A stretch of DNA of 64,000 bases from a virus, in the IMG/VR virus record IMGVR_UViG_3300044731_001604, positions 1 to 64,000 of that record; one strand, 5' to 3'. The translations under genes were made by a program, and so were the position numbers. Under the pieces are notes generated by a model. It made no database searches. It was not told the origin of the DNA and saw only the letters and a program-made list of their open reading frames with translations. Position 1 is the first letter of the stretch. Each line of letters begins with the position of its first letter. Positions 6,466-40,794 of this stretch are shown here, piece by piece.

Positions 6466-7026
6466 ATGAAGTCTATATATTTTATTAAATACTATGACAA
6501 AAATGAGCCGAAACCAACTTTTGCAACAGTTGAGTCTGATTCTCTATTGGAACGCATGGCCTTACCTGGCTCAAGTGATTTAGTAAAAATTACCGAAATG
6601 ACTTACGGAATAGATTATAGATTTCTAATAGAAGTTAAAAACTCGGTATACAAAGAGAATACTGAGTTCATGTTCCGATATGATAACCATTCAATTATAG
6701 ATCAATCAAATAATATAGTTAATATAAAAATATTTAGTGGTATTTATAGAATTTTAAGCCATTTTCACTTCCCATATGCAAACGAATTAACAGGTTCCGT
6801 ACTTCACACAACTGGAAATACAGTTAATCCTTTATACAATCCGGCACCTGCTGTCAATCAAAATACACAATCAAGCTCAAATACCGCACCAAGCCAAGCA
6901 AATACGTCCCAATCGACACAAGATGAAGACAAAGGCGATGACGGCCACACGCATCAATATTCCACATATGTCGGGTTCATAGATACTTATGACTATTGTG
7001 TCATCTGTGGAGAAAGACGCAAATAA
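6466..7026 (+). CDS. hypothetical protein with low-complexity linker and C-terminal Zn-ribbon
   Basis: S/Q/T/N linker followed by HTHQY...YDYCVICG. Confidence 0.6.
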   Translation: MKSIYFIKYYDKNEPKPTFATVESDSLLERMALPGSSDLVKITEMTYGIDYRFLIEVKNSVYKENTEFMFRYDNHSIIDQSNNIVNIKIFSGIYRILSHFHFPYANELTGSVLHTTGNTVNPLYNPAPAVNQNTQSSSNTAPSQANTSQSTQDEDKGDDGHTHQYSTYVGFIDTYDYCVICGERRK

Positions 7027-7113
7027 TTTGTGGTATTATATAGTGTACAAAATACAGAGGTTCTAATTTCAAAACATCTGTAAGTAGACAAAATGCCAGT
7101 TGCAGAGGATTTT

Positions 7114-7362
7114 ATGAAAATATATGTTAAATACGACATGCCTGATGATAAAGAAGATTTTGAATTAGCCCAAAAAGCAGTAAAAATGTCCATCGCCATA
7201 GACGATATGTGGAATGAAGTGTTTAGACCGTTTTACAAACATGGCTATAAAAATAAAGAATTGAATGATCTTACTGAAAATGAAGATGTAGCTAAAGCTA
7301 TAGACCTTTTGGCAGAAATATACAGAGAAGTCTTAAGAGATAATGGATTATACGGAGATTAA
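7114..7362 (+). CDS. hypothetical protein (likely start MKIYV at 7114)
   Basis: GAGGA RBS before ATG 7114. Confidence 0.6.
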   Translation: MKIYVKYDMPDDKEDFELAQKAVKMSIAIDDMWNEVFRPFYKHGYKNKELNDLTENEDVAKAIDLLAEIYREVLRDNGLYGD

Positions 7363-10806: not shown

Positions 10807-13800
10807 TTAGATTATGAACCAAACAGAACCGTCAGTAACTAAAGTTTTTGACTCATTTTTAGCACTGATTATTATAGCTCCATCGCTATCAATTGTGCCG
10901 CCACTAATAGTAATAGTGTTAGCTGTGCTATCAGTTTTCTTGATATTGAAAACCTTACCGCTTAAGCCAGTCGGCGACGGAAGAGTAATAGTTTGGCTAG
11001 TAGATGTGCAATCACAAACAAGAACATCGTTTGATGATGTCAATGCATAAGTAGAAGAAGAATTCACTATAACGCTTAGGTAACTAGTTGCGCCACCGCC
11101 TACTTGTGATTCTACACCAGCAGAGTTTAAAATATACAACTTGTTATCTGATTTAGCGTATATTTTATTAGTTCCTGCTGATGGACTTGTTGGAGTGGTT
11201 ATTTGAGTTGCAACAATTTCTTTACTTAAAGAAGTTGTCCCAGTTATTGATACATTTGCTGAAAATGATGCATTTTGATTGTGATCTAATTGTAAAGCTA
11301 AAACTCTTCCAGTTGTTCCATTTAGGGTTGTATAAAAACCCATTTTTGAACCGTTGGCAGAAGATGTCCAGTTTTCAGTTGCAATAGAGTTAATTCCAGA
11401 ACCAATTGCAGTTGTGTGACTTGCATCTGTAGCCCCAGCAAATTGGATTACGCCTATTCTAGATCCAGATAACATAGCTGCGCTTGGGTCAGTTTGCAAT
11501 TGGATTATAGAGCCGCTGCTAGAATTTTGAGTCGTGCTTTTTTGATTGAATTGAGCTATTGGAACAGTGAAAGTAGTCGAGTGTATGTCAACTGTTGCTG
11601 AAGAAACAGAACCTTGTTGATTTATACCTAAACGCTTATTTGTCTCGTCCCATATTAAATCTAAAGTGTCAATCTCTAAATTACCCAAAGTATCAGTATA
11701 AACGATACCTCTTGCAGTATCACTTGCAGATGCTAAGTTAGTGGCTTTAATGTCTGTAGTCGTAACCGTGCCAGTAAAGGTTGGAGAAGCAAAAGGAACC
11801 GGTGTTGTCCAAGAAAGATCCCCAAGTCCATCATTAGTTAAAGTTTGGCCACTAGCGCCTTGTGCTGCTGGTAATGTTAATGTATATGATGTAACTGATG
11901 ATGGAGCAGTAAGGGTAACTGTATGTGTTGAAGCATCGTGTAGTACTACGTTTTTAGTGTGGGTATTTAACCAACCATAATTAGCATCACCTAAACTTTG
12001 CGACAAGTTGCCAGCAGGTATTAAATTCTTATGAACAACTGCTTCTGAAAAACCAGACCAATCAAGAACATTTCCTGATGAATTATATAAAGTACGGCTA
12101 CCATAATTAACACTTGCTATTCCAGAAGAATCTATCAATGAACGAGTTCCGAAAAGAATACTACTGACCCCAGACGAATCATATAGCTCCCTAGAAGCCG
12201 TATCGAGGATTAAAACATCGCTAGTGTCTTTTAGACTGCTTGTATATAAATTACCCCAAATTTTTGCCGTACTACCAAGATCGTGTGTATTATTAGCAGA
12301 TGGAATCAAATCTTGGTTAACAGACGTAGGAGAAGTTAAATTGCTTAAAGTAGTATTTGCACCGCTTCCAGAAGGCGTTGCCCAAGAAAGAGTACCAAAA
12401 CCGTCATTAGTCAGTACTGTAGAAGCTGCCCCTTGAGCTGGCGGCATTGTTAGACTGTACGGCGTAATTGTAGATGGAGATAAAAGGCTAATAACATTTG
12501 ATCCAGCATCTACAAATCTGAAAGAAGATGAGTACGTACTACCCCAAGGGTTTAAAGATGTTCCCAATGATCTACTAAATGCAGAATCTGGAATAATGTT
12601 TTTATAAGAAAAAATTTCAGTTGTACCACTCCATTGTAGCGATAATGATCCAGCAGAATCATATAAATATCTATTTAACCAATCTAATGAAGTATGATTT
12701 GACGCATCCTGTAAATATCTACTTCCCCAGTGTGCAGCAATGTCTCCAACACCGTCAACTAAATATCTATTATTCCAATCCAATGACAGATTAGTAGAAG
12801 AATCAAATAGTCTATCATTAGATAAATTAATGGCAGTGGTGTTTGAAGTATTTGAAATAGTGTTAACGTGCAAGCTATTCCATCTAGTTGTGTTGTTACC
12901 TAAATTGAGACCAGAAGTTCCAGCGATTAAATCTTGACTAACAGCAGTTGGCGAAGTTAAGTTAGAAAGGGCAGTATTGGCTCCAGTTCCAGAAACAGTA
13001 GTCCATGAAAGATTACCAGATCCATCGTTAGTCAATACAGTTGAAACCGCGCCCTGAGTAGAAGGCATTACTAGATTATGCGGTGTAATTGATGACGGAA
13101 CTGTTATATTAACAGAGTGAGCCGATGCATTAACTAAACTAACAGTTCCAGTTTTTACGTAATTCCATGGAGATATATTTGTACCAAGATCATTACTAAG
13201 CCCAGATATTGGAACAATGTCCTTATTAGATGCAATATAACTTATACTTGACCAGTCTAATGAAACGGAACCACTTAAGTCATATATTTTTCTTGCAGAC
13301 CAATCTAAAGATATATTACCATCTGTTGCAACTAAAGAATTGTTGATTACATCAATAGCGGTATTATCTAAAGCATTTTGTATTGACCCAATATATGTCA
13401 AATTCCAAGGCTTAGCCAAACTACCTAAATTCATAGATGTTGTGCTAGGGATTAGATCTTGATTAACAGATGTAGGAGAAGTTAAGTTAGATAAAGATTT
13501 ATTAGCACCAGTTCCAGCAGGAGTTCCCCAAGAAAGATGCCCAGTACCATCAGTAGTTAGTACTTCACCGTTAGAACCGTGAGCAGAAGGTAAAGTTAGG
13601 GTATAAGCTGTAACAGTAGTTGGTGCAACAATTGAAATCTCGTGTATTGTTGAATCAAGGAATTTAAGTCCTTTAGTATATACGTTAGTCCACGGAGCAG
13701 AATTTGTACCAAGAGTTGGCGTATACCCAGATGCTGGAATAATGTTTTTATAAATAGATAAATCAGATAAGCCTGACCAATCTAATATAATGTCACCGAT

Positions 13801-22791: not shown

Positions 22792-25700
22792 TTAAGCTTT
22801 AATTAGCTTAACGTCCATTCTTGCAACAGCAGTAGTAGCACCGCTATCATAAGTAACGTTTATGTTTCCACCGCTAACTACAGCAGCAAAAGAGATTCCA
22901 GTAGCATCAGTCTCAACGCTCATATCATTGTATGATACCTCAGAACCGTTTGTAACTACGCGGAATGTTCCAATTACTACTTTACCAGCACTGTCTTTCA
23001 TTTTGTAAGTAATCTCACAACCTTCAAAAGAAGCAGTACTGAAAGTTAAATCAGCGATAACTTCGCCAGTTTTTCCAGCAGCAAGGGCGATTGCATCAAA
23101 GTACTGTTCTTGAACGAGAGCGCCAGCAGCACCACGTTTAACAGTTCCTCTGAACAATGGATCAGCAGCAACCATAGTATCAGCAACGATACCATCAGCG
23201 TTAACTTTCAATCCAGCACTAGATGTAGTTAAAGAACTTCCATCAAGTTTGATTGCAAGTTTATCGCCAGATCCACCTTGTAAACCACCGCTAGAAGACA
23301 ATGCAGAAGCGTTGATGTGAGCTTCGTCAACAACAACAGAATCAACATAACCTTTAGTAGCTGCATCAGAAGAAGCAGTTGGTGTAGCTAAGTTAGTAAC
23401 TTTGTTTGCGCCCATATCAATAGCGCCAGACATTGTACCGCCAGCTAAATCAAGTTTAAGAGCAAGAGCATCTTCAACAAGAAGGCCGAGGTCGTCTTTA
23501 GCAGCATTTGAAGCGTCGATTTGGCTTTGTAAGCTAGCATCAGCAGCAATACGTGCAGATTGCTCAGCAGCATCAGCAGCAATTCTTGCAGATTGCTCAG
23601 CATTTAAGCCAGTTTGTAAACTAGACTCAGCAGCAGTTGCTCTAGTAATTTCTGCATTTAATGCAGTAGAAGCAGCAGTAGAAAGAGTCGTAATAGCACT
23701 GTTTAAGTTACCATCAGCAGCTTGGAAAGCATTAACGATTTCAGTTAATGAATCAAGGGCAGCAGGGTCAGTGTTAGAAACAATACTATCAATTTGTGAT
23801 TGTAAACCAGAAACTGCAGTTTGTCTTGAAGAAACTTCAGCAGCTAAATCAGCAGAGATAACTAAGTCAGCAGCTTCACGTGCAGATTGCTCAGCAGCGA
23901 TTGCAGAAGTTAATACACCTTCAGCAGCAGTAGCTCTAGAAACCTCAGCGTTAATTGCTGTGTTAAGATTTGCATCAGCAGCAATACGTTGTGATTGTTC
24001 AAGTTGAGCAGCAGTCAATCTTAAAGATTGCTCAGCATCAATAGCAGCTTGACGAGAAGTGATCTCAGCATTTAATGCATCTGTAAGAGCAGAATCAGCA
24101 GCAATACGTGCAGATTCTTCAGCAGAAACAGCAGCTTGTCTAGATGATACTTCAGCGTTTAATGCAGAAGTTAAAACTCCTTCAGCAGCAGTAGCTCTAG
24201 AAATCTCAGCAGCTAGATCAGAAGCAATGTTTGCTTCAGCAGCACTTGCTCTAGTTACTTCTGCGTTTAATGCGCTAGTAAGAGCAGCATCAGCAGCAAT
24301 TCTTGCAGATTCTTCAGCAGCAACAGCAGCTTGTCTAGATGATACTTCAGCAGCAACAGCAGCAGTAAGAACATCATCAGCAGCGATTCTAGCAGATTGC
24401 TCAGCAGAATCAGCAGCCATACGAGCAGATTGCTCTGCATTGTCAGCAGCAATTCTTGCAGACTCTTCAGCAGCAACAGCAGCCATGCGAGCAGATTGCT
24501 CAGTAGCTACAGCAGCAGTAAGAACACCCTCAGCAGCACCAGCTCTAGCAATTTCAGCAGCTAAGCTGTTAGAAACAGCAGTAACAGCAGCTTGTCTAGA
24601 AGACATTTCAGCGGCATCAGCAGCAATACGTGCAGATTGTTCAGCAGCTAGATCGCTAGTAAGTTGAGCATCAGCAGCGATTCTAGCAGATTGCTCAGTA
24701 GCATCAGCAGCAATTCTTGCAGACTCTTCAGCAGCAACAGCAGCAACACGAGCAGAAGCTTCAGCAGCAACAGCGTTAGAAGCAGCTAACTCAGCAGCAG
24801 CAACAGCAGCTTGACGAGAAGAAACTTCAGCAGATAAATCAGCAGCAAGAGCAGCATCACCAGCAATACGAGCAGATTGCTCAGCAGCTAAGTTAGAAGC
24901 AGCAGAATCAGCTAAAGTAGTAATAGCGCCATTTAAGTTGCTATCAGCAGCTTGGAATGCACTAACAATTTCAGTTAATGAATCAAGAGCAGTAGGATCA
25001 ACATTAGAAAGAACATTATCAATTTGAGCTTGTAAAGATTGCTCAGCAGAAGTAGCTCTAGAAACCTCAGCAGTGATTGCAGAAGTTAAAACACCTTCAG
25101 CAGCAGTAGCTCTAGAAACCTCAGCAGCTAAATCAGCAGTAAGTTGTGCATCAGCAGCAATTCTTGCAGATTGCTCAGCAGCGTCAGCAGCAATACGTGC
25201 AGATTGTTCTGCAGCCATTGCATTAGAAGCAGCTAACTCAGCAGCAGCTACAGCGTTTTGTCTAGAAGTAGCTTCAGCAGAAACTGCAGCTTGTCTAGAT
25301 GACACTTCAGCATTTAATGCATCTGTAAGAGCAGAATCAGCAGCAATACGTGCAGATTGCTCAGTAGCATCAGCAGCAGTAAGAACAGCCTCAGCAGCCA
25401 TTGCTCTAGATTGCTCAGCAGCCTCAGCAGCCATTGCTCTAGATTGTTCAGTGGCATCAGCAGCAATACGTGCAGAAGCTTCAGCATCTACAGCAGCAAT
25501 ACGTGCAGATTGTTCAAGAGCCTCAGCAGCCATTGCTCTAGATTGCTCAGCAGATACAGCAGCTTGACGTGAACTAACTTCAGCAGCTAGATCAGCAGTA
25601 AGAGTAGCATCAGCAGCAATACGAGCAGATTGCTCAGCAGCTAAATCAGCAGTAAGTTGAGCATCAGCAGCAATACGTGCAGATTGCTCAGCATTAATAG

Positions 25701-27984
25701 ATACTGTAATACCTTGAGTAGTAGACTGTTGTAATGTAGTGATATCAGCAGCAAGAAGAGCTTCAGCAGCCATTGCTCTAGATTGTTCAGCATTAACAGC
25801 AGCAACACGAGCAGAAGCTTCAGCAGCAACAGAAGTATCTGTATAGACTTCAGCAGCATCAATAGCAGCAGCTACAGCGTTTTGTCTAGAAGTAGTTTCA
25901 GCAGCATCAGCAGCAATACGAGCAGATTGTTCAGCAGCTAAATCAGCAGCAAGTTGAGCATCACCAGCAATACGCGCAGATTGCTCAGTAGCTACAGCAG
26001 AAGTTAAAACTCCTTCAGCAGCAACAGCTCTAGAAACTTCAGCAGCTAAATTATTAGAAGCACTATCAGCTAATTGGCTAAGAGTAGTGTTGATACTACC
26101 GTCAGCATTTTGGAATGCGCTTACGATTTCAGTTAATGAATCGAGAGCAACAGGATCAATATTAGAAACAATATTGTCGATTTGTGATTGTAAAGATTGG
26201 TCAGCAGCAATACGAGCAGACGCTTCTGCATCTACAGCATTAGTACGTGAACTTGCTTCAGCCGCAATAGCAGCGATGCGAGCAGAAGCTTCAGCAGCTA
26301 AATCAGCAGCGATACCAGCTTCAGCAGCAGTTGCTCTAGAAACTTCAGCATTTAATGCATCAGTAACAACTACATCACCAGCAATTCTTGCAGCTTGTTC
26401 AGCAGCAACAGCAGCTTGACGTGCAGATTGCTCAGTAGCTAGATCAGAAGCAAGTTGTGCATCAGCAGCAATACGAGCAGATTGCTCAGTAGCTAAATCA
26501 GCAGCAAGAGCAGCATCACCAGCAATTCTTGCAGATTGTTCTGCAGAATCAGCAGCAACACGAGCAGATTGCTCAGCAGTTACAGCAGCTTGTCTAGATG
26601 ATACTTCAGCAGCTAGATCAGCAGTTAATACGCCTTCAGCAGCAGTTGCTCTAGAAACTTCAGCATTTAATGCACTATTTAAAGTAGCATCGCCAGCAAT
26701 ACGAGCAGATTGTTCAGCGGCATCAGCAGCAATACGAGCAGATTGCTCAGTAGCTAGATCAGCAGTAAGAGTAGCATCAGCAGCAACGCGAGCAGATTGC
26801 TCAGCAGCATCAGCAGCAATACGAGCAGATTCTTCAGCAGAAACAGCAGCAACACGAGCAGAAGCTTCAGCAGCAACAGAAGTATCTGTATAACCTTCAA
26901 CAGCATCAATAGCAGCAGCTACAGCAGCTTGACGTGAACTAACTTCAGCAGCTAAATCAGCAGTAAGTTGTGCATCAGCAGCAATACGTGCAGATTGTTC
27001 AGCAGCTAAATCACTAGTAATAGTGTTTTCTGCAGCAACACGAGCAGCAGTTTCGTTAGCTAAATTAGTAGCAGCAGCGCCAGCTAAAGTAGTAATAGCA
27101 CTGTTTAAATTGCCATCAGCAGTTTGGAATGCATCAACGATTTCAGTTAACGAATCAAGAGCTGTTGGATCAATGTTAGAGAGAACATTGTCGATTTGGC
27201 TTTGTAAGCTAGCGTCAGCAGCAATACGTGCAGATTGTTCTGCAGTATCAGCAGCAATTCTTGCAGACTCTTCAGCAGAAACAGCAGCAACACGAGCAGA
27301 AGCTTCAGCAGATACAGCGGCTTGTCTAGATGATACTTCAGCAGCTAGATCGCTAGTAAGTTGAGCATCAGCAGCAATACGAGCAGAAGCTTCAGCAGAT
27401 ACAGCAGCTTGACGTGAAGTTAATTCAGCAGCGTCAGCAGCAATTCTTGCAGACTCTTCAGCAGCAACAGCAGCAACACGAGCAGATTGCTCAGTAGCTA
27501 CAGCAGCAGTAAGAACATCATCAGCAGCAATACGTGCTGATTGTTCAGCAGCAACAGCAGCAGCACGAGCAGTTTGCTCAGCAGCTAAATCGCTAGCAAG
27601 TTGTGCGTCAGCAGCAATACGTGCTGATTGTTCAGCAGCAACAGCAGCAATACGAGCAGATTGTTCAGTAGCTAAATCGGCTTGAACGCCAGAAATTGCA
27701 GTTTGGAAAGCAGCAGCTTGCGAATTTAATGCAGCATCAATACCAGCTAAGTGAGATGCAATAACATTTGCATCACTAGCAGTATAGTTAACTCCTTGAG
27801 TTAAACTACCTACTGTATAATTAAATACAGCTGAATCAATAAGCGTTTTCCATTGACCGCCAGTTCTAATCTTGAAACTATTTGACGTAGTATCAAAATA
27901 TAACTGTCCGTCAACAGCTTTCGCTGGTGGGTTAGTTAAACCGCGGAGTTGTATACCGCCGGAAACTTTTAATAAATTTGACAT
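22792..27984 (-). CDS. giant Ala-rich coiled-coil fibre protein (1730 aa)
   Basis: anchor module; about 1400 aa of AEQSARIAADA-type 11-residue repeats; 4 DPxALDSLTEIV modules; GGTMSGAIDMGANKVTNLA.P...DAATKGYVD neck; beta-rich C-terminus. Confidence 0.85.
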   Translation of the reverse strand: MSNLLKVSGGIQLRGLTNPPAKAVDGQLYFDTTSNSFKIRTGGQWKTLIDSAVFNYTVGSLTQGVNYTASDANVIASHLAGIDAALNSQAAAFQTAISGVQADLATEQSARIAAVAAEQSARIAADAQLASDLAAEQTARAAAVAAEQSARIAADDVLTAAVATEQSARVAAVAAEESARIAADAAELTSRQAAVSAEASARIAADAQLTSDLAAEVSSRQAAVSAEASARVAAVSAEESARIAADTAEQSARIAADASLQSQIDNVLSNIDPTALDSLTEIVDAFQTADGNLNSAITTLAGAAATNLANETAARVAAENTITSDLAAEQSARIAADAQLTADLAAEVSSRQAAVAAAIDAVEGYTDTSVAAEASARVAAVSAEESARIAADAAEQSARVAADATLTADLATEQSARIAADAAEQSARIAGDATLNSALNAEVSRATAAEGVLTADLAAEVSSRQAAVTAEQSARVAADSAEQSARIAGDAALAADLATEQSARIAADAQLASDLATEQSARQAAVAAEQAARIAGDVVVTDALNAEVSRATAAEAGIAADLAAEASARIAAIAAEASSRTNAVDAEASARIAADQSLQSQIDNIVSNIDPVALDSLTEIVSAFQNADGSINTTLSQLADSASNNLAAEVSRAVAAEGVLTSAVATEQSARIAGDAQLAADLAAEQSARIAADAAETTSRQNAVAAAIDAAEVYTDTSVAAEASARVAAVNAEQSRAMAAEALLAADITTLQQSTTQGITVSINAEQSARIAADAQLTADLAAEQSARIAADATLTADLAAEVSSRQAAVSAEQSRAMAAEALEQSARIAAVDAEASARIAADATEQSRAMAAEAAEQSRAMAAEAVLTAADATEQSARIAADSALTDALNAEVSSRQAAVSAEATSRQNAVAAAELAASNAMAAEQSARIAADAAEQSARIAADAQLTADLAAEVSRATAAEGVLTSAITAEVSRATSAEQSLQAQIDNVLSNVDPTALDSLTEIVSAFQAADSNLNGAITTLADSAASNLAAEQSARIAGDAALAADLSAEVSSRQAAVAAAELAASNAVAAEASARVAAVAAEESARIAADATEQSARIAADAQLTSDLAAEQSARIAADAAEMSSRQAAVTAVSNSLAAEIARAGAAEGVLTAAVATEQSARMAAVAAEESARIAADNAEQSARMAADSAEQSARIAADDVLTAAVAAEVSSRQAAVAAEESARIAADAALTSALNAEVTRASAAEANIASDLAAEISRATAAEGVLTSALNAEVSSRQAAVSAEESARIAADSALTDALNAEITSRQAAIDAEQSLRLTAAQLEQSQRIAADANLNTAINAEVSRATAAEGVLTSAIAAEQSAREAADLVISADLAAEVSSRQTAVSGLQSQIDSIVSNTDPAALDSLTEIVNAFQAADGNLNSAITTLSTAASTALNAEITRATAAESSLQTGLNAEQSARIAADAAEQSARIAADASLQSQIDASNAAKDDLGLLVEDALALKLDLAGGTMSGAIDMGANKVTNLATPTASSDAATKGYVDSVVVDEAHINASALSSSGGLQGGSGDKLAIKLDGSSLTTSSAGLKVNADGIVADTMVAADPLFRGTVKRGAAGALVQEQYFDAIALAAGKTGEVIADLTFSTASFEGCEITYKMKDSAGKVVIGTFRVVTNGSEVSYNDMSVETDATGISFAAVVSGGNINVTYDSGATTAVARMDVKLIKA
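23520..27690 (-). repeat. degenerate 33-bp (11-codon) coding repeats
   Basis: dozens of GCAGCAATACG(T/A)GCAGATTG(C/T)TC-type units on the + strand. Confidence 0.85.
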
Positions 27985-34689: not shown

Positions 34690-34869
34690 ATGGAATTATA
34701 TAAGCTTTTAGTTGTTAGAAATAGAGAAAAGAAGGTTATTGCCGAAAACTTGAGCAAAGAAGAGGTGTCTGTAGCAAAGACAGATTGGGCAACTATTTAT
34801 AATAACGACGTTTATTTCGATCCAGTTCCAGTGTTATTGGTTGAAGTGCAGCGTGAGGGTGAAGAATGA
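34690..34869 (+). CDS. leader gene of the array (no KRxQ tag; start 34678 or 34690)
   Basis: ORF after promoter, ATGA-coupled to member 1. Confidence 0.6.
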   Translation: MELYKLLVVRNREKKVIAENLSKEEVSVAKTDWATIYNNDVYFDPVPVLLVEVQREGEE

Positions 34870-35066
34870 GGAAACGCGAGCAGGCAGAAGTACATAACGC
34901 CTTGTTCTATCAAGTAAGGTACATTCTAGATGTAATTCAAGAACCTGAAGAAGTTACAGAATATACTATTATGGATATCTTGTTAGATAATCGACTCAGA
35001 CCTGTTGATGTTGCTGAGTTGCAAAAGCAAGTAAGATATTTTATTGCGAATCGGAATATAAGGTAA
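34866..35066 (+). CDS. KRxQ-array member 1
   Basis: MRKREQAE. Confidence 0.75.
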   Translation: MRKREQAEVHNALFYQVRYILDVIQEPEEVTEYTIMDILLDNRLRPVDVAELQKQVRYFIANRNIR

Positions 35067-35070
35067 ATAT

Positions 35071-35268
35071 ATGGTCAAAAGAAGGCAGCTAAGTGATTTT
35101 CTTAAAAAGTATCTCTACAATAAGCTTTATAGCCAGTCTATGATCACAACTGAATACGTTTGGGACAAAGTATGGTACAGCACTAGACCTGATCTCTACC
35201 TATTGCTTCATGTTAATATCGAAATAGAAATTACTAAACACATAAGACAAATTAAGGCCACTAAATGA
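35071..35268 (+). CDS. KRxQ-array member 2
   Basis: MVKRRQLS. Confidence 0.75.
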   Translation: MVKRRQLSDFLKKYLYNKLYSQSMITTEYVWDKVWYSTRPDLYLLLHVNIEIEITKHIRQIKATK

Positions 35269-35456
35269 GGAAAAGAGACCAGATTGATGATTCTAAATTT
35301 TTTTGGCGATTAGTTGACCGCACCTTATCTTGGCGCATAGACGATGAACTTGGGGCATATCTTAGATGGCAATTTCGCGACAATTTAGATGATAACCTTT
35401 ACTATCACTTGTATAGACACATAAGCGATTTCTTAAGGCAAGAGGAATTAAAATGA
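35265..35456 (+). CDS. KRxQ-array member 3
   Basis: MRKRDQID. Confidence 0.75.
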   Translation: MRKRDQIDDSKFFWRLVDRTLSWRIDDELGAYLRWQFRDNLDDNLYYHLYRHISDFLRQEELK

Positions 35457-35632
35457 GAAGAAGAAATTCAATTGATGCATACCATAGACTATTGCTCTCT
35501 CTTGCTAAGAATTCAGGTAAAGTCGTAAAAGATGACTATTTTAACAGACTTATGGATATAGTTCGCGAAGGGGCTAACCAAGAAATGAAAATTAAGCTCT
35601 ATGCCTATTTAAAAGATGTGAGGTCAAAATGA
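35453..35632 (+). CDS. KRxQ-array member 4 (59 aa, not in ORF track)
   Basis: MRRRNSIDAY...LKDVRSK; ATGA overlaps on both sides. Confidence 0.7.
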   Translation: MRRRNSIDAYHRLLLSLAKNSGKVVKDDYFNRLMDIVREGANQEMKIKLYAYLKDVRSK

Positions 35633-35811
35633 AGAAACATATTCACATGGACGACATGTTTTATATAAAAATGCATACAGCCATAAAGTCTAGATTAGAT
35701 GATAGTTTGTACGATAGATTGTATTTTATATTTTTAGACGACAAGATGAATTGCATTAGGCGTGAATTGAGAAGACATATAGCAAATTCTCTCGTAAGAT
35801 GGCACAGATGA
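35629..35811 (+). CDS. KRxQ-array member 5
   Basis: MKKHIHMD. Confidence 0.7.
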   Translation: MKKHIHMDDMFYIKMHTAIKSRLDDSLYDRLYFIFLDDKMNCIRRELRRHIANSLVRWHR

Positions 35812-35987
35812 GAAAACGAGAATTTATTGAAAAAAATTTTCATGAAAAAATCTATGAAAAATACCACGATCAACTTGATGCAAATTTGCATTTTAAATTA
35901 CACCAAAAAATATACCACGAACTACGTGAAGACATTTATTGGGAATTATATAAACAAGTTAGGAACATAGTAGCTAATTGGAGCTAA
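35808..35987 (+). CDS. KRxQ-array member 6
   Basis: MRKREFIE; ATGA overlap places the start at 35808. Confidence 0.75.
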   Translation: MRKREFIEKNFHEKIYEKYHDQLDANLHFKLHQKIYHELREDIYWELYKQVRNIVANWS

Positions 35988-35988
35988 T

Positions 35989-36174
35989 GTGAAGAAACGT
36001 AAGCAATTAGATAAATTCTTTTTCAGAACACGAATGAGGTTGAATAAAGACATACCATTTCGTTTATATTCTAGTGGCCGCGTAAATCATTATATTGATT
36101 CATCTTTGACAAACAATTCTGTATGTAGCGGTATTATATTGTTAATTAAATCAGAAATCGAGGGCGAAGAATGA
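35989..36174 (+). CDS. KRxQ-array member 7
   Basis: GTG start, MKKRKQLD. Confidence 0.75.
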   Translation: MKKRKQLDKFFFRTRMRLNKDIPFRLYSSGRVNHYIDSSLTNNSVCSGIILLIKSEIEGEE

Positions 36175-36383
36175 GGAAGAGGGAGAGGGCCAACCTTCAG
36201 GTTAGAAGGTTAGTAGATTACATACCATGCGATATACTTACGGCTGGGTTAACAAGCAGAATCAGCTTTAAAGCCGCTGATATGTATGATATACTTAAAG
36301 TGGGTATTATTAATAGGCTTATACATTGCATACAAGACTATGATTCAAAAAAGGCATCAAATGAGGCGAAGAGAAATACTTAA
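36171..36383 (+). CDS. KRxQ-array member 8
   Basis: MRKRERAN. Confidence 0.7.
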   Translation: MRKRERANLQVRRLVDYIPCDILTAGLTSRISFKAADMYDILKVGIINRLIHCIQDYDSKKASNEAKRNT

Positions 36384-36570
36384 CCAGCAGTTTTATATTT
36401 GGAACGAAAGCCAATGGATTGATAAGCTTTGGTATCAACTTGGAAGCGAGAGAACTAAGGTATTGATACCATTTATTAAAAACCATATTGGTGTTGAACT
36501 TAAAGAACAGATATATGGACAGCTTAAGTGTAATTTGAGATTACATGTAAGAAATACTGAAGGGATTTAA
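36361..36570 (+). CDS. KRxQ-array member 9
   Basis: MRRREILN; internal ATG of the track ORF 36286..36570. Confidence 0.7.
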   Translation: MRRREILNQQFYIWNESQWIDKLWYQLGSERTKVLIPFIKNHIGVELKEQIYGQLKCNLRLHVRNTEGI

Positions 36571-36571
36571 G

Positions 36572-36751
36572 ATGATAAAAAGAATTCCTATTTCTAGTGA
36601 AAAGATTAGCGATAAGCTTTTTGATATGGTGTATAGTCAACCTTATTATGGAATGCGAAAGCGTATTCGTAATCAACTTAGTGTTAAGCTCAGTAACCAA
36701 TTATATCAGGAATTGATTTTGCCTATTGCCTATCAAAAGAGGGTTAATTAA
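36572..36751 (+). CDS. KRxQ-array member 10 (59 aa, not in ORF track)
   Basis: MIKRIPIS...YQKRVN. Confidence 0.7.
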   Translation: MIKRIPISSEKISDKLFDMVYSQPYYGMRKRIRNQLSVKLSNQLYQELILPIAYQKRVN

Positions 36752-36752
36752 T

Positions 36753-37001
36753 ATGAAAAAGCGAAAACAGTTGGAGAATCAGTTCGGGTATCAGTTGGGG
36801 TATGAGTCGGTGAATCAGTTGGTGAATCAGTTGAGGTATCAGTTGGTGTATCAGTTGGTGTATCAGTTGGTGTATCAGTTGGAGAATCAGTTGGTGAATC
36901 AGTTGGAGAATCAGTTGAGGTATCAGTTGAGGTATCAGTTGAGGGATCAGTTGGTGAATCAGTTGAGAAAAACTGAAACTGTTTACAAGAGGGTTAATTA
37001 A
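36753..37001 (+). CDS. KRxQ-array member 11, body encoded by a 12-bp tandem repeat
   Basis: MKKRK(QLxx)17...YKRVN. Confidence 0.7.
   Translation: MKKRKQLENQFGYQLGYESVNQLVNQLRYQLVYQLVYQLVYQLENQLVNQLENQLRYQLRYQLRDQLVNQLRKTETVYKRVN
36768..36971 (+). repeat. 17 x 12-bp tandem repeat
   Basis: consensus CAGTTG(GTG/AGG/GAG)(T/A)AT. Confidence 0.95.
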
Positions 37002-37002
37002 T

Positions 37003-37185
37003 ATGAAAAAGCGAAAACAAATTGCAGACATATCATTTAATGTTTTCAGAGAAGCATTTATTACACAGATTTATAAAAAAAGTGACTTAAAGTATAATTG
37101 CATAATTGATGAGCAACTGACCTCTAAATTAGTAAATCAGACTCTTGGATATCAAATACGATACTTGATTATAGGTTTGTTCTAA
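37003..37185 (+). CDS. KRxQ-array member 12
   Basis: MKKRKQIA. Confidence 0.75.
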   Translation: MKKRKQIADISFNVFREAFITQIYKKSDLKYNCIIDEQLTSKLVNQTLGYQIRYLIIGLF

Positions 37186-37365
37186 ATGGTTAAAAGAATC
37201 CCACTCAAAGACGGATTATATGTTAAAATAGACAGTGCTTTTAACTGCCAGTTAGAGTACAAAGTCTATACGCTGCTTCGTGAAAAGCTTTTCGTTGTTC
37301 TTTGGGACGAAATTAGGGATCAACTTGAAAGAAATGTCAGAATATCTTTAAAAAACAGGGCATAA
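37186..37365 (+). CDS. KRxQ-array member 13 (59 aa, not in ORF track)
   Basis: MVKRIPLK...LKNRA. Confidence 0.7.
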   Translation: MVKRIPLKDGLYVKIDSAFNCQLEYKVYTLLREKLFVVLWDEIRDQLERNVRISLKNRA

Positions 37366-37366
37366 G

Positions 37367-37540
37367 ATGAGGAAAAGAGAGCAGATTGATAACATTTTAT
37401 TTGTTCAATTTACAGATGTGCTTAAAGACTCATTTGGGGACAATGTAAGCATGCCATTTTTTTATAAGATAATGCTGGCATTACAAGGGGAATTAGTTGG
37501 CGAACTTTATAGACAATTAGAATCACAGGTGTTGAGATGA
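37367..37540 (+). CDS. KRxQ-array member 14 (57 aa, not in ORF track)
   Basis: MRKREQIDNI...SQVLR. Confidence 0.75.
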   Translation: MRKREQIDNILFVQFTDVLKDSFGDNVSMPFFYKIMLALQGELVGELYRQLESQVLR

Positions 37541-37734
37541 AGAAACGAGAACAACTGATAACTAACTTATATTTTAAATTTTATAAGAAATATAACGATT
37601 TGCCAAATGAGGAAACTTTTGATATAATCAACGGAGAACTTGGCGATAAGTTAAATAGACAGATTTGGTATCCTGTTCGTGGGGAGTTATTCGATCAACT
37701 TTATTGTCATACTATTAAGAAAGAAGCGAAATGA
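37537..37734 (+). CDS. KRxQ-array member 15
   Basis: MKKREQLI. Confidence 0.75.
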   Translation: MKKREQLITNLYFKFYKKYNDLPNEETFDIINGELGDKLNRQIWYPVRGELFDQLYCHTIKKEAK

Positions 37735-37940
37735 AAAAACGAGTTCAAATACCTGGGCATCTTGGTGACAAATTGTGGGAACAACTGGCTTACACCATGA
37801 GCGGTCAATTAAGATTCAAGCTTAAAATGGTTTTAGCAAACTCTAGTTTAGTTGATGAATATGACACTGCTGCGGCGCATTGCCACCTTAGAAAAAATGT
37901 TTATTGCCACCTTAGATTTAACAGTGGGATTAGAAAATGA
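37731..37940 (+). CDS. KRxQ-array member 16
   Basis: MKKRVQIP. Confidence 0.75.
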   Translation: MKKRVQIPGHLGDKLWEQLAYTMSGQLRFKLKMVLANSSLVDEYDTAAAHCHLRKNVYCHLRFNSGIRK

Positions 37941-38107
37941 GACAACGCGATCAAATATATAGACATTTTTCTTCGCATTTAGATTATGAACTAAAGTGTT
38001 TGTATAGAAATCAATTTGATGAGTGGTTGTTTTATCATATTGGGCGAAACATAGGAAATACTGTCAAGTATGATCTTATTAATTTGCAGGAATTGTTGGG
38101 AAAATGA
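37937..38107 (+). CDS. KRxQ-array member 17 (56 aa, not in ORF track)
   Basis: MRQRDQIY...ELLGK. Confidence 0.72.
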   Translation: MRQRDQIYRHFSSHLDYELKCLYRNQFDEWLFYHIGRNIGNTVKYDLINLQELLGK

Positions 38108-38295
38108 GAAAGCGCGAAGAAATAAGTGTTATAAACAGCATAGACCAGATTTCTAGAAACAAAATGCTTATTCAAGTAGGTACGCCTGTACGTAATCAGA
38201 TTGTTAGCAGATTGCGCGACAATCTTTTAAATGAACTATTAGACCAACTGTATATGCATACGGCTTATTACCTCAATGAGAGGGTGACAAAATGA
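38104..38295 (+). CDS. KRxQ-array member 18
   Basis: MRKREEIS. Confidence 0.75.
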   Translation: MRKREEISVINSIDQISRNKMLIQVGTPVRNQIVSRLRDNLLNELLDQLYMHTAYYLNERVTK

Positions 38296-38489
38296 AAAAA
38301 AGGATTGAGATTGATTCCATGGTTTTTGATAAGATTCAGGAGCATCTTTTTAATTTTTATTTCGATAAGAGAATTGATCGGTCGCTATACAAGAAATTCT
38401 TAGATGATCTTGAGGAATCTGACGCAAACAATTCCGTCAATCTTATAATGTCGGCAGTAATTTGGCGCATTGAAAGGGAAACACTATGA
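38292..38489 (+). CDS. KRxQ-array member 19
   Basis: MKKRIEID. Confidence 0.75.
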   Translation: MKKRIEIDSMVFDKIQEHLFNFYFDKRIDRSLYKKFLDDLEESDANNSVNLIMSAVIWRIERETL

Positions 38490-38683
38490 AAAAACGTGAT
38501 CAAATTAACTATCAACTTTATGAGCTATACTTTGAATTTAATAAACTGTATCCAAAGTTATCATCAACAAATGATTATTACGTAATTAATACTGCAACAA
38601 GAACAGCACTTTATGATATGTTTTACGGTGAAATTAGATGGCATCTTAAAGGTTTTGTGAGAGATTTTAAGGGTTTGTCATGA
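38486..38683 (+). CDS. KRxQ-array member 20
   Basis: MKKRDQIN. Confidence 0.75.
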   Translation: MKKRDQINYQLYELYFEFNKLYPKLSSTNDYYVINTATRTALYDMFYGEIRWHLKGFVRDFKGLS

Positions 38684-38874
38684 TAAAGCGTAAGCAGATT
38701 AACGACAAAGTACATAGTAGACTACTCAAAGTGTGCTTTTCTAAATTAAAATTACCCAACAATGTTTACTTCGCAATTCATGACAGGCTTACTGAAAAAC
38801 TATATGAAATTAGTTGGGGGCAGATTAGAAGCAAGGTTTACGACGAAATACATATGATAAGTAAAGTGAATTAA
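38680..38874 (+). CDS. KRxQ-array member 21
   Basis: MIKRKQIN. Confidence 0.75.
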   Translation: MIKRKQINDKVHSRLLKVCFSKLKLPNNVYFAIHDRLTEKLYEISWGQIRSKVYDEIHMISKVN

Positions 38875-38875
38875 A

Positions 38876-39067
38876 ATGACTAAAAGATATCAATTAACAG
38901 ACAGATTATATACCAGCGTACTAAGAGTATACATGCCGTCCTCTTCTTGGGTATATGACATGCTGCTTGATGAAATTTATAATCCCATTTATTTACAACT
39001 TAGGGATCAACTTAGAGAACACGTTCGCAACAGTATCGAATCGTTAAAGCAAAGTGAACTAAAATGA
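38876..39067 (+). CDS. KRxQ-array member 22
   Basis: MTKRYQLT. Confidence 0.75.
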   Translation: MTKRYQLTDRLYTSVLRVYMPSSSWVYDMLLDEIYNPIYLQLRDQLREHVRNSIESLKQSELK

Positions 39068-39261
39068 TTAAAAGAGAGCAGATCGACAGCCAGATAGATA
39101 TTATATTATATGCATACGTTGATGAACAAATTTATTATCAATTGGATAAGCTTTTTGAAAATTTCTTGAGAGAAGAGCTTGATGACCAATTATATACGGA
39201 GCTTGATATAAATCTTCGTCTTGAGCTGTACAGATATCTAAATAATGGGGTATTAAGATGA
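39064..39261 (+). CDS. KRxQ-array member 23
   Basis: MIKREQID. Confidence 0.75.
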   Translation: MIKREQIDSQIDIILYAYVDEQIYYQLDKLFENFLREELDDQLYTELDINLRLELYRYLNNGVLR

Positions 39262-39443
39262 AGAAGAGAGAATGTTTAGAGATGAAATTAGGTGATAAAC
39301 TAGCTTTCAAATATTATAATGAGTTACAAGATGGCCAACACCATTTAATATACGCTCATGTAAAAAAAACTCTCGTGAAAGAGGTTCACCAAAATGTTAG
39401 AACTCAGCTAAGTGCCTATCTGAGAGCAGAGGTACCAAAGTGA
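39258..39443 (+). CDS. KRxQ-array member 24
   Basis: MKKRECLE. Confidence 0.75.
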   Translation: MKKRECLEMKLGDKLAFKYYNELQDGQHHLIYAHVKKTLVKEVHQNVRTQLSAYLRAEVPK

Positions 39444-39661
39444 TAAAACGCGAGCAGATTGATAGTCATATATATACTTTTATCTATGATGATTTATACA
39501 ATCAGCTATATGGTCAAATTAGCGTCACGTGCGGTAAATGGACATTTGACTATGTTTACAGTAGTTTAACTTTGCAGTATTATAACTTATCATCAGATGG
39601 CCAGTACAGCTCTTTGGTAAACATCGTTTTAACTGATCTAGAGAAAAAGGTGTTGAAATGA
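39440..39661 (+). CDS. KRxQ-array member 25
   Basis: GTG start, MIKREQID. Confidence 0.75.
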   Translation: MIKREQIDSHIYTFIYDDLYNQLYGQISVTCGKWTFDYVYSSLTLQYYNLSSDGQYSSLVNIVLTDLEKKVLK

Positions 39662-39837
39662 GAAAAAGAGAGCAGATTGACAACACATTGGATGACAATA
39701 TAAGAGACATTTTGAATGTCAGCTTGGGCTCTAACTTTAGAAATCAAATGTTTTCACGTATTTATAGAAATGTTAGCGCAAGGGCTGATCTGCTACATTT
39801 TATATATTACTATATAAGTACACAAAAGGTTAAATAA
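39658..39837 (+). CDS. KRxQ-array member 26 (59 aa, not in ORF track)
   Basis: MRKREQIDNT...TQKVK. Confidence 0.75.
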   Translation: MRKREQIDNTLDDNIRDILNVSLGSNFRNQMFSRIYRNVSARADLLHFIYYYISTQKVK

Positions 39838-40037
39838 TGAGGAAAAGAGTACAGATAGACAGACAAATTAATGAGAATCTCAGAGACCCTTTTTACGTAA
39901 AGCTTAGTAATCAATTTAATTATTATGCTTACAATGACATTAGGTCTAACCTATACCCAGAACTTTTCTTGATTGTATACGATCAATTATATAATAATAT
40001 ATATTATGTCATGAGAGAATTGGTAGTGTCAAAATGA
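39837..40037 (+). CDS. KRxQ-array member 27
   Basis: MRKRVQID. Confidence 0.75.
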   Translation: MRKRVQIDRQINENLRDPFYVKLSNQFNYYAYNDIRSNLYPELFLIVYDQLYNNIYYVMRELVVSK

Positions 40038-40279
40038 AAAAGCGAGATCGGTTACTAGATAACACAATGAGTCGGTTAATAGATCTTTTAGAAGACAGGC
40101 TTGAGAATAAGATAGTGGATTATTTGGGTTGTCAGTTAGATGATAAGTTATATTATGAGTTTAGAAGTGAGTTAAGAATTAAGTTTTATGATCGGTTAGT
40201 AGATCAAATGAATAATCAACTAAGACATCATTTAAGGACGCAAGTATATGGAGTCGAGAGAAAACATAGAAATATTTGA
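40034..40279 (+). CDS. KRxQ-array member 28 (degenerate 4-residue periodicity)
   Basis: MKKRDRLL; hydrophobic residue every 4 aa. Confidence 0.75.
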   Translation: MKKRDRLLDNTMSRLIDLLEDRLENKIVDYLGCQLDDKLYYEFRSELRIKFYDRLVDQMNNQLRHHLRTQVYGVERKHRNI

Positions 40280-40427
40280 TTATACTCGTATAATAATGAG
40301 ATCGTCATATTTTTCTTCTAACAAAATTATATTTGAAACAGATCAAAAGCTCATGTGTATGCTAATTCCATTTTTTCTAGAAATGAGGCAGCAAATCAGG
40401 GAGCATATTACGGGCAATTGCAAATGA
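40248..40427 (+). CDS. KRxQ-array member 29 (59 aa, divergent tag, not in ORF track)
   Basis: MESRENIE...TGNCK; ATGA overlap with member 30. Confidence 0.6.
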   Translation: MESRENIEIFDYTRIIMRSSYFSSNKIIFETDQKLMCMLIPFFLEMRQQIREHITGNCK

Positions 40428-40603
40428 AGAAACGTAAACAGATTTTCTTGAAGGAATATAACCGCGTATTTACTAAAATGGGTATGCCACTTCCGTCTTC
40501 AGTTGAAGAGGCGGTAGAAACTCAGTTAAAAGATAAGCTTAGGGATGAATTGTTACACCAACTTAGGCTTCACGTTAAAACCCATTTAATGGAAATGAAA
40601 TGA
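40424..40603 (+). CDS. KRxQ-array member 30
   Basis: MKKRKQIF; internal ATG of track ORF 40355..40603. Confidence 0.75.
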   Translation: MKKRKQIFLKEYNRVFTKMGMPLPSSVEEAVETQLKDKLRDELLHQLRLHVKTHLMEMK

Positions 40604-40794
40604 TTAAAAGAAAAATGATACAATACAATTTTAAGACTTTGTTCCACGATTGCCTGTATTCTCAACTTGAGCCAATATTGTATCATAGGCTAAGAGACAG
40701 CTTAAACCATAAGCTTCAGCACTATACGCATAACCCACTTAAGATAGAGCTTTACTATCACATGAATGAAAAGAAAAGCTCCAATTCTAATTAA
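40600..40794 (+). CDS. KRxQ-array member 31
   Basis: MIKRKMIQ. Confidence 0.75.
   Translation: MIKRKMIQYNFKTLFHDCLYSQLEPILYHRLRDSLNHKLQHYTHNPLKIELYYHMNEKKSSNSN

Follow-up and report, generated by a model that had tools for sequence, protein, structure and literature searches.

Member 11 of a phage mini-gene array: a coding 12-bp minisatellite between two copies of a 33-bp gene junction

How does a phage gene come to consist almost entirely of a short DNA repeat, with its start shared with the gene behind it and its end shared with the gene before it? Member 11 of a mini-gene array in the IMG/VR virus record IMGVR_UViG_3300044731_001604 raises this question. The stretch analyzed here (the window) comprises positions 1 to 64,000 of this record, which has 121,824 bp and an estimated completeness of 76%. 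Member 11 is best explained as a genuine coding member of a library of detached tetrad-repeat mini-proteins of this phage. By sequence comparison, these mini-proteins are best explained as stand-alone relatives of a (xQ[L/V]x)n tract found within DUF6745 proteins of other phages. We propose tentatively that member 11 originated in situ, by duplication of a gene junction and expansion of a repeat.

The junction between the genes carries the first evidence. A 33-bp sequence occurs exactly twice in the window, 250 bp apart and with 0 mismatches, against a chance expectation of 0. No third copy with up to 3 mismatches is present in the window, and 100 shuffles gave none. The likeness between the two copies ends sharply at both edges. 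The insert between them has 217 bp, and the locus from member 10 to member 12 measures about 430 bp. The open reading frame (ORF) of member 11 takes its ribosome-binding site (RBS), ATG and tag from the first copy, and its KRVN-stop from the second. Its RBS, start and tag are identical to those of member 12. A first-pass annotation of this DNA had described the duplication as exact, with members 10 and 11 both ending in KRVN-stop and members 11 and 12 both starting with MKKRKQ, and had counted 17 (QLxx)n units between the copies. All of this is borne out, with an in-frame count of 17 units, the last of them degenerate. The same annotation took the body for a repeat expansion and not for a copy of a neighbor, and we found no meaningful DNA alignment of the body to any array member.

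The body of member 11 is a minisatellite. By Tandem Repeats Finder, 36768-36965 holds 16.5 copies of a 12-bp unit at 86% matches, and a 48-bp higher-order period is reported too. Variation that recurs in several units is confined to positions 7 (G/A), 8 (G/T/A) and 10 (A/T) of the 12. Of the 17 units, 15 use CAG TTG for Q and L, and 16 keep the two residues. Third codon positions are almost invariant; the variable sites are codon positions 1 and 2 of both x residues. This pattern is best explained by selection that keeps Q and L, and tolerates or favors change at both x residues. Outside the repeat, the unique sequence of the body amounts to a tail of 21 nt.

We examined 14 contigs carrying member 12 (from JGI, NCBI, ENA and Logan), and DNA was available from five places (L002 to L006). 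L003 and L005 are identical to the window throughout the locus. L004 and L006 start inside the repeat and are identical over their partial span. The ENA assembly L002 has one CAGTTGGTGTAT unit fewer, with a junction period of 238 bp and a product of 78 amino acids. Over 5,263 aligned bases, L002 and the window differ by two mismatches and one 12-bp gap. A one-unit-shorter allele amid two mismatches in 5,263 bp makes the repeat the fastest-changing site of the region, that is, a slipping minisatellite. The first-pass annotation had considered an assembly artefact. However, the same structure appears in independent assemblies from different samples and pipelines, so the structure of member 11 is real DNA. 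All the features of a coding minisatellite that we tested are found in it: in-frame 12-bp units, a difference in copy number, and fixed and variable positions.

The exact protein of member 12 is on record for 11 contigs, the longest of 157,572 bp. A collection of 15 billion proteins contains no exact copy of the member 10 or member 11 protein, and it has those of their neighbors on 10-12 contigs. Samples that contain this phage are JGI 3300042505, 3300042891, 3300042382 and 3300059473, ENA ERZ27272080 and SRR27419766. The JGI gene calls omit member 11, so automated annotation hides it.

Is member 11 related to the rest of the array? Against a profile of the other family members, built without it, member 11 gives an E-value of 3.4e-10. 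Across the record, the family profile detects 42 members, of which 12 lie beyond the window. Scans of eight members against Pfam and PHROGs gave nothing significant, and neither PADLOC nor NCBIfam had a match for members 11 and 23, the two scanned. The hydrophobic periodicity is strongest at 4 residues in 19 of the 30 array members. When member 11 is left aside, the nucleotide autocorrelation of the other 29 peaks at lags 12, 24 and 36 (0.35 versus about 0.27), and that of codon position 2 is 0.45 versus 0.28. Codon identity at lag-4 repeated residues is no higher in these 29 than at other lags. The periodicity of the 29 is therefore old or held at the protein level, and member 11 is repetitive in its DNA. 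AlphaFold2, run on the single sequence, models member 11 as one long helix with a predicted local distance difference test (pLDDT) of 92.5. Scans for promoters and terminators found them no richer than in shuffles. The coordinates are collected in Table 1.

Table 1. Features of the member 11 locus, of the array around it and of the phage's DUF6745 gene. Positions are those of the window unless a contig is named.
Feature	Length	Position	Strand	Description
Junction copy 1	33 bp	36737..36769	+	Last four codons and stop of member 10 (KRVN-stop), Shine-Dalgarno sequence, ATG, first 5.7 codons of member 11 (MKKRKQ); exact match
Junction copy 2	33 bp	36987..37019	+	Identical to copy 1; end of member 11 (KRVN-stop), Shine-Dalgarno sequence, ATG and tag of member 12; exact match
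Member 11 ORF	82 amino acids	36753..37001	+	Tag MKKRKQ, (QLxx)17, short unique tail ending in KRVN-stop
In-frame 12-bp minisatellite	17 units	36768..36971	+	Consensus CAG TTG (G/A)(G/T/A)G (A/T)AT; begins with the final two bases of junction copy 1
Run of three identical units	3 units of CAGTTGGTGTAT	36840..36875	+	Only two in the ENA assembly L002 (78-amino-acid allele)
Member 10	59 amino acids	36572..36751	+	Upstream neighbor; tail inside junction copy 1
Member 12	60 amino acids	37003..37185	+	Downstream neighbor; first 27 residues identical to P0161 of the divergent relative
Array of 30 translationally coupled mini-genes	56-82 amino acids each	34866..40794	+	Tag M-x-K-R-x-Q-[IL], 4-residue hydrophobic periodicity; includes member 11
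Member 22 left junction segment	25 nt	38863..38887	+	Upstream of member 22; 23/25 identical to 39051-39075
Member 22 right junction segment	25 nt	39051..39075	+	Downstream of member 22; frames of the upstream genes differ (SELK-stop versus KVN-stop)
DUF6745 gene	208 amino acids	G000:C1:103490-104116 (= L017:9491-10117), outside the window		32.8 bits versus a cut-off of 27; tetrad tract missing

We compared the profile of the 29 other members with 1.8 billion representative proteins. It gave 472 matches, 96 of them below 1e-10, with a best E-value of 5e-33. Most are proteins of 300-700 amino acids with several matched stretches each. Among the 150 best-listed of the 472 matches, 120 contain 7-64 Q[LVIMF]xx tetrads, in a tract that mostly starts near residue 75-90. 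DUF6745 scored above the Pfam cut-off in 6 of the 10 long matches scanned. Member 11 is likewise a tract of the (xQ[L/V]x)n type, and PF20530 has no match in it or in seven other members. In two DUF6745-type genes, the tract is itself a 12-bp DNA minisatellite (38.8 copies at 83% in L019 and 12.3 copies at 77% in L020). DUF6745 proteins with an internal tract and member 11 share, then, the same tetrad unit and the same kind of DNA repeat. However, the former have an N-terminal domain and a DUF6745 domain, both missing in member 11. Since the likeness is that of a periodic repeat, a common descent of the mini-genes and the DUF6745 tracts is plausible but not proven.

The phage has a DUF6745 gene of its own. 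Its 208-residue protein aligns to both ends of a long family member, and the tract is absent. A second mini-gene array begins 12 bp downstream of this gene; the array of member 11 lies about 33 kb from it. Further family members are found at L017:1806-2200, 6589-7228 (minus strand) and 12529-12958. Just upstream of the DUF6745 gene, on the other strand, there are genes for a MoxR-like AAA ATPase and a DUF2201 VWA/metallopeptidase protein. AlphaFold2 models the DUF6745 protein with a pLDDT of 88 and a predicted template modeling score of 0.83, and the sole weak stretch is at the expected site of the tract. Its nearest Atlas clusters are DUF6745 proteins, 91% viral. With this model, Foldseek gave no match at an E-value of 0.001 or better. 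The best VIA-align result was a Z of 5.2 over 51 residues, to glyoxalase-like βαβββ modules, which is below a meaningful level. No mention of DUF6745 was found in the literature searched.

A complex predicted for the DUF6745 core and an adjacent mini-protein, which is not member 11, gave weak support for docking. The score was 0.57 (best control 0.00), in a range, 0.60 or less, that holds only 7 of 80 solved complexes together with both mismatched pairs that passed. Of the 80 solved complexes, 58 reach the docking mark itself, as do 2 of 110 mismatched pairs. At least 69% of the contacts agree between the runs, and the pLDDT of the partner is at least 53. The mini-proteins might function, we infer, as helical modules docking on a repeat-less DUF6745 core.

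How, then, did member 11 arise? Quite possibly it originated where it now stands. A short illegitimate duplication of the junction between members 10 and 12 would have copied the tail, stop, RBS, start and tag, leaving a slot ready for expression. One QLxx unit would then have expanded until it filled this slot to the usual length of the family. Units could be gained and lost by replication slippage or unequal exchange, and point mutation might later blur the repeat until the gene is a non-repetitive member like any other. Ordinary enzymes of phage replication and recombination would suffice, with no dedicated acquisition machinery. We infer both the order of these events and the mechanism of the duplication. 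The strength of this account is that one recent event would explain both the identity of the junctions and the purity of the repeat. That the repeat starts inside the tag speaks for it as well.

The phage encodes a PolIII-alpha-type polymerase, a primase, a DnaB-like helicase, a UvsX-like recombinase, SbcCD and a 5'-3' exonuclease. The structure needs no more than slippage and illegitimate or short-homology recombination while the phage replicates. The polymerase, of the DnaE (PolIII alpha) type, is encoded at L015:17532-20000 and L016:70-1272, and its nearest cultured relative is that of Myxococcus phage Mx1 (36% identity over 71% of the query). Also present are genes for a GroEL-like chaperonin, a sigma factor and PhoH.

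Local DNA alignment of the 217-bp insert with every other member gave short, low scores only, those of members 10 and 12 being unremarkable. Three other ideas were tried and rejected. The body of member 11 was not copied from member 10 or 12, to which it has no similarity. Its best match in the array, 14 nt shared with member 28, is read in a different frame in each gene, and we regard it as a chance match. Finally, fission of a longer gene by insertion of a junction does not fit, because deletion of one copy or the other shifts the frame of the downstream part and brings an early stop.

No inverted repeats are present at the ends of the insert. A 12-nt inverted repeat, complementary at 11 of 12 positions, does link 36616-36627, in the body of member 10, with 36751-36762 and 37001-37012, the ATG-tag part of both junction copies.

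We also compared all the junctions of the array in windows of 50 nt. The median identity is 23/50, and the pair of member 11 reaches 38/50. Any other two junctions have at most about 15 exact bases in common. Junctions next to each other are more similar than those that are not neighbors (permutation p 0.001, and 0.007 without member 11). The flanks of member 22 are, by their sequence, an older junction duplication. Its two segments are read in two frames, which indicates DNA copying and not protein convergence. Apart from these, the junctions before members 1 and 8 (34849-34876 and 36154-36181), which lie 1.3 kb from each other, have a stretch of about 20 bases in common except for one mismatch. 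The genes upstream of both end in EGEE-stop and are otherwise unrelated.

A divergent relative is known from a Logan contig of SRR23086397 (10,403 bp), which was compared by gene coordinates, gene lengths and protein orthologues. The identity of its orthologues ranges from 98.5% (member 16) down to 79% (member 12). The orthologue of member 12, P0161, has this 79% overall, with the first 27 residues identical and the remainder strongly diverged. Member 12 is thus a mosaic between the lineages, which points to exchange near the member 11 locus. Judged by gene lengths, the relative seems to carry some four additional genes upstream of member 10 and to lack one between members 21 and 24. Such differences between the two known lineages indicate that the gain and loss of whole genes is frequent. 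The gene missing between members 21 and 24 is possibly member 22.

Other searches for relatives returned nothing. The exact 33-mer has 0 matches in IMG/VR. Protein-anchored scans of viral contigs (with a 215-residue neighbor and with member 16) and a metagenome scan with member 16 found no relative. A degenerate tag pattern gave 8 loci, 0 of them with family members by hmmsearch. The array has no blastn match in cultured phages, and cluster look-ups for ten other members showed no relative at 90% identity or more.

Several observations weigh against an origin in situ. First, none of the six assemblies holds an allele without the 250 bp. Second, the relative has a filled stretch of 194 bp, with no called gene, at 6969-7162 of its contig, between its 59-residue gene and P0161. 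The slot is filled in both lineages and may therefore predate their split. Third, the sequence after copy 2 and the sequence before copy 1 are unlike the ends of the insert, so a simple tandem duplication of the junction with its flank is not visible. Fourth, pure (xQLx)n minisatellites persist in DUF6745 genes; the purity of a repeat is no clock, and a pure repeat need not mean a newborn gene. Likewise, the bodies of adjacent genes show slightly greater similarity than those of genes that are not neighbors (p 0.025), and the adjacency signal of the junctions is not cleanly specific to them. The absence of member 11 from the JGI gene calls counts on the same side.

The first-pass annotation had spoken of a possible gene birth in progress. 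The repeat expansion, the active repeat, the decayed periodicity of the family and the duplication at member 22 agree with this idea; the recency of the junction duplication and insertion is unproven. That annotation had also proposed to look for alleles with another repeat count or without the 250 bp, and of these the shorter allele was found. Other copies of the 12-mer array, which it suggested searching for, are absent from the 122-kb record. Among the enzymes that it named, the recombinase (UvsX-like) and the primase are present, both of general replication and recombination type, and no reverse transcriptase was found in the record. Finally, its analogy with spacer acquisition found no support: the junction is not a repeat that the whole array shares.

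An alternative, less probable in our view but of some weight, is that member 11 is an old member that has been renewed. Turnover of the minisatellite (concerted evolution) would have made its tetrads homogeneous again, and a patch of gene conversion or template switching would have equalized its junctions. The filled 194-bp slot of the relative, at the same place, fits this explanation. So do the tracts that stand at 77-83% unit identity in unrelated DUF6745 genes, and the phage has the UvsX-like recombinase, SbcCD and a flap endonuclease. Nevertheless, two independent processes would have to strike one gene. Moreover, there is no homology beside the 33 bp and adjacent junctions are typically about 50% identical, which would make them a poor substrate for conversion; homologous gene conversion would be an unlikely source of the identity. 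Also, no unique sequence of an older body is left except the 21-nt tail.

It is improbable that the (QLxx)n body was captured from a DUF6745-type tract, or from the mini-gene of a co-infecting relative, by recombination, anchored on the junction at one end and illegitimate at the other, that duplicated the junction. The type of unit does match DUF6745 tracts and P0132 (NQLRYQL-like units), and the mosaic member 12 is consistent with exchange. However, the record holds no other 12-mer array, the phage's own DUF6745 has no tract, and the collections searched contain no donor.

Less credible still is that the tract is a spacer minisatellite without coding function, or an artefact of assembly, and the ORF incidental. 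In its favor are the JGI calls that skip member 11, an opposite strand that is also open for 95 amino acids, and two contigs that end inside the repeat. But five assemblies from different samples and pipelines agree. The RBS, start and tag are as in member 12, and the frame ends at the stop of the second junction copy. What the units encode is the motif of the family, the family profile matches, and the Q and L codons are kept while the x codons vary.

We found no reverse transcriptase (RVT_1) in the record and no dedicated acquisition enzyme among the annotated large ORFs; no models of Cas1, integron integrases or transposases were run, and the completeness of the record is 76%. Dedicated cassette acquisition by an integrase, a Cas1-like protein or a reverse transcriptase is the least probable explanation of all: it has the formal likeness to a repeat duplicated around a new insert, with similar flanks at member 22, but the junction is not constant across the array, the annotated enzymes are those of general replication and recombination (in an incomplete record, where absence is no proof), and the insert is a product of slippage and not foreign DNA.

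If the origin in situ is right, member 11 offers a testable route of de novo gene birth in a virus, through junction duplication, repeat expansion and divergence. A broader claim is more doubtful. Member 11 might be a snapshot of how the library grows, by de novo births and not by copies of old genes, with member 22 at a later stage. In that case, most of the 42 members would be independent births from a minisatellite, and the system would naturally generate new small proteins that bind the DUF6745 core.

Two other repeat-bearing genes were seen in this phage. At 22792-27984 (minus strand), an ORF of 1,730 amino acids has tandem repeats of 33, 54, 66 and 87 bp, a periodicity of 11 residues and a coding strand rich in Ala and Gln. 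Its product may be a tape-measure-like or fibrous protein. A protein of 730 amino acids at L017:4293-6485 (minus strand) carries a 15-residue repeat (VDVGNFPATQTVNGT) seven times over without a change, encoded by a perfect tandem array of 45-bp units.

We compared the locus with known systems. CRISPR (clustered regularly interspaced short palindromic repeats) adaptation, integron cassettes and the target-site duplication of transposons all bring in a new segment with a direct duplication of its boundary, as seen at member 11. However, the boundary repeat of CRISPR arrays and integrons is constant, and in the array of member 11 the boundary varies and the insert is a self-generated repeat. Transposons have terminal inverted repeats and a short target-site duplication. 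Member 11 has no inverted repeats, and a tandem-repeat insert of 217 bp lies between its copies; their 33 bp are far above the usual length of a target-site duplication. A diversity-generating retroelement needs a reverse transcriptase and a template repeat, and the record has no RVT_1 match and no second 12-mer array.

The internal proteins of T4-type phages share a capsid targeting sequence (PMC3012670). Like the mini-genes, they combine a short conserved N-terminal tag with very diverse small phage proteins. However, they have no sequence relation to the mini-genes, and the tag of the mini-genes runs straight into the tetrad repeat. Basic residues stand ahead of many DUF6745 tracts as well. 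Together with the continuity of the tag, this suggests that the mini-gene tag belongs to the repeat module and is not a targeting signal.

Type I restriction offers another parallel. The HsdS subunits of EcoR124 and EcoR124/3 differ in a central tetrad repeat (Price et al. 1989, as cited in PMC3983042). Both HsdS and member 11 have a short in-frame helical repeat whose copy number shifts by slippage; in HsdS, according to that citation, function shifts too. The HsdS model of PADLOC is matched by (xQLx)n tracts. However, HsdS has 2-4 units between two DNA-recognition domains, and member 11 has no such domains and no PADLOC match.

In its DNA, member 11 also resembles gene 54 of mycobacteriophage Tweety. 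Tweety gp54, Che8 gp57 and PMC gp51 are proteins with a tetrapeptide (AAxx)n repeat (PMC2884959). In gene 54, the 12-bp repeat varies at positions 7, 8, 10 and 11, with invariant third positions, and this was read as selection for variation (Pham et al. 2007, PMC2884959). Mutants of Tweety that escape defence gain or lose repeat units of gp54, a counter-defence protein that such changes retune (PMC9262239). The gene is a non-essential phage gene. Gp54 and member 11 are not homologous: hhalign gave a probability of 0.3% for gp54 against the DUF6745 alignment, and gp54 has no Pfam match. Gp54 and member 11 are both encoded by in-frame 12-bp minisatellites with two fixed and two variable residues per tetrad. 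In both, the variation falls on codon positions 1 and 2 of the variable residues, and the copy number differs between close relatives. On the other hand, gp54 has AAxx units, 40-48 repeats between unique N- and C-terminal domains, and a single gene. Member 11 has QLxx units, an 8-residue tag and a short tail beside its repeat, and is one of an array. Coding tetrapeptide minisatellites in phage genes were thus already known. What member 11 adds is a repeat that forms a complete small gene within a library of 42 members, with duplicated boundaries and a natural polymorphism in copy number.

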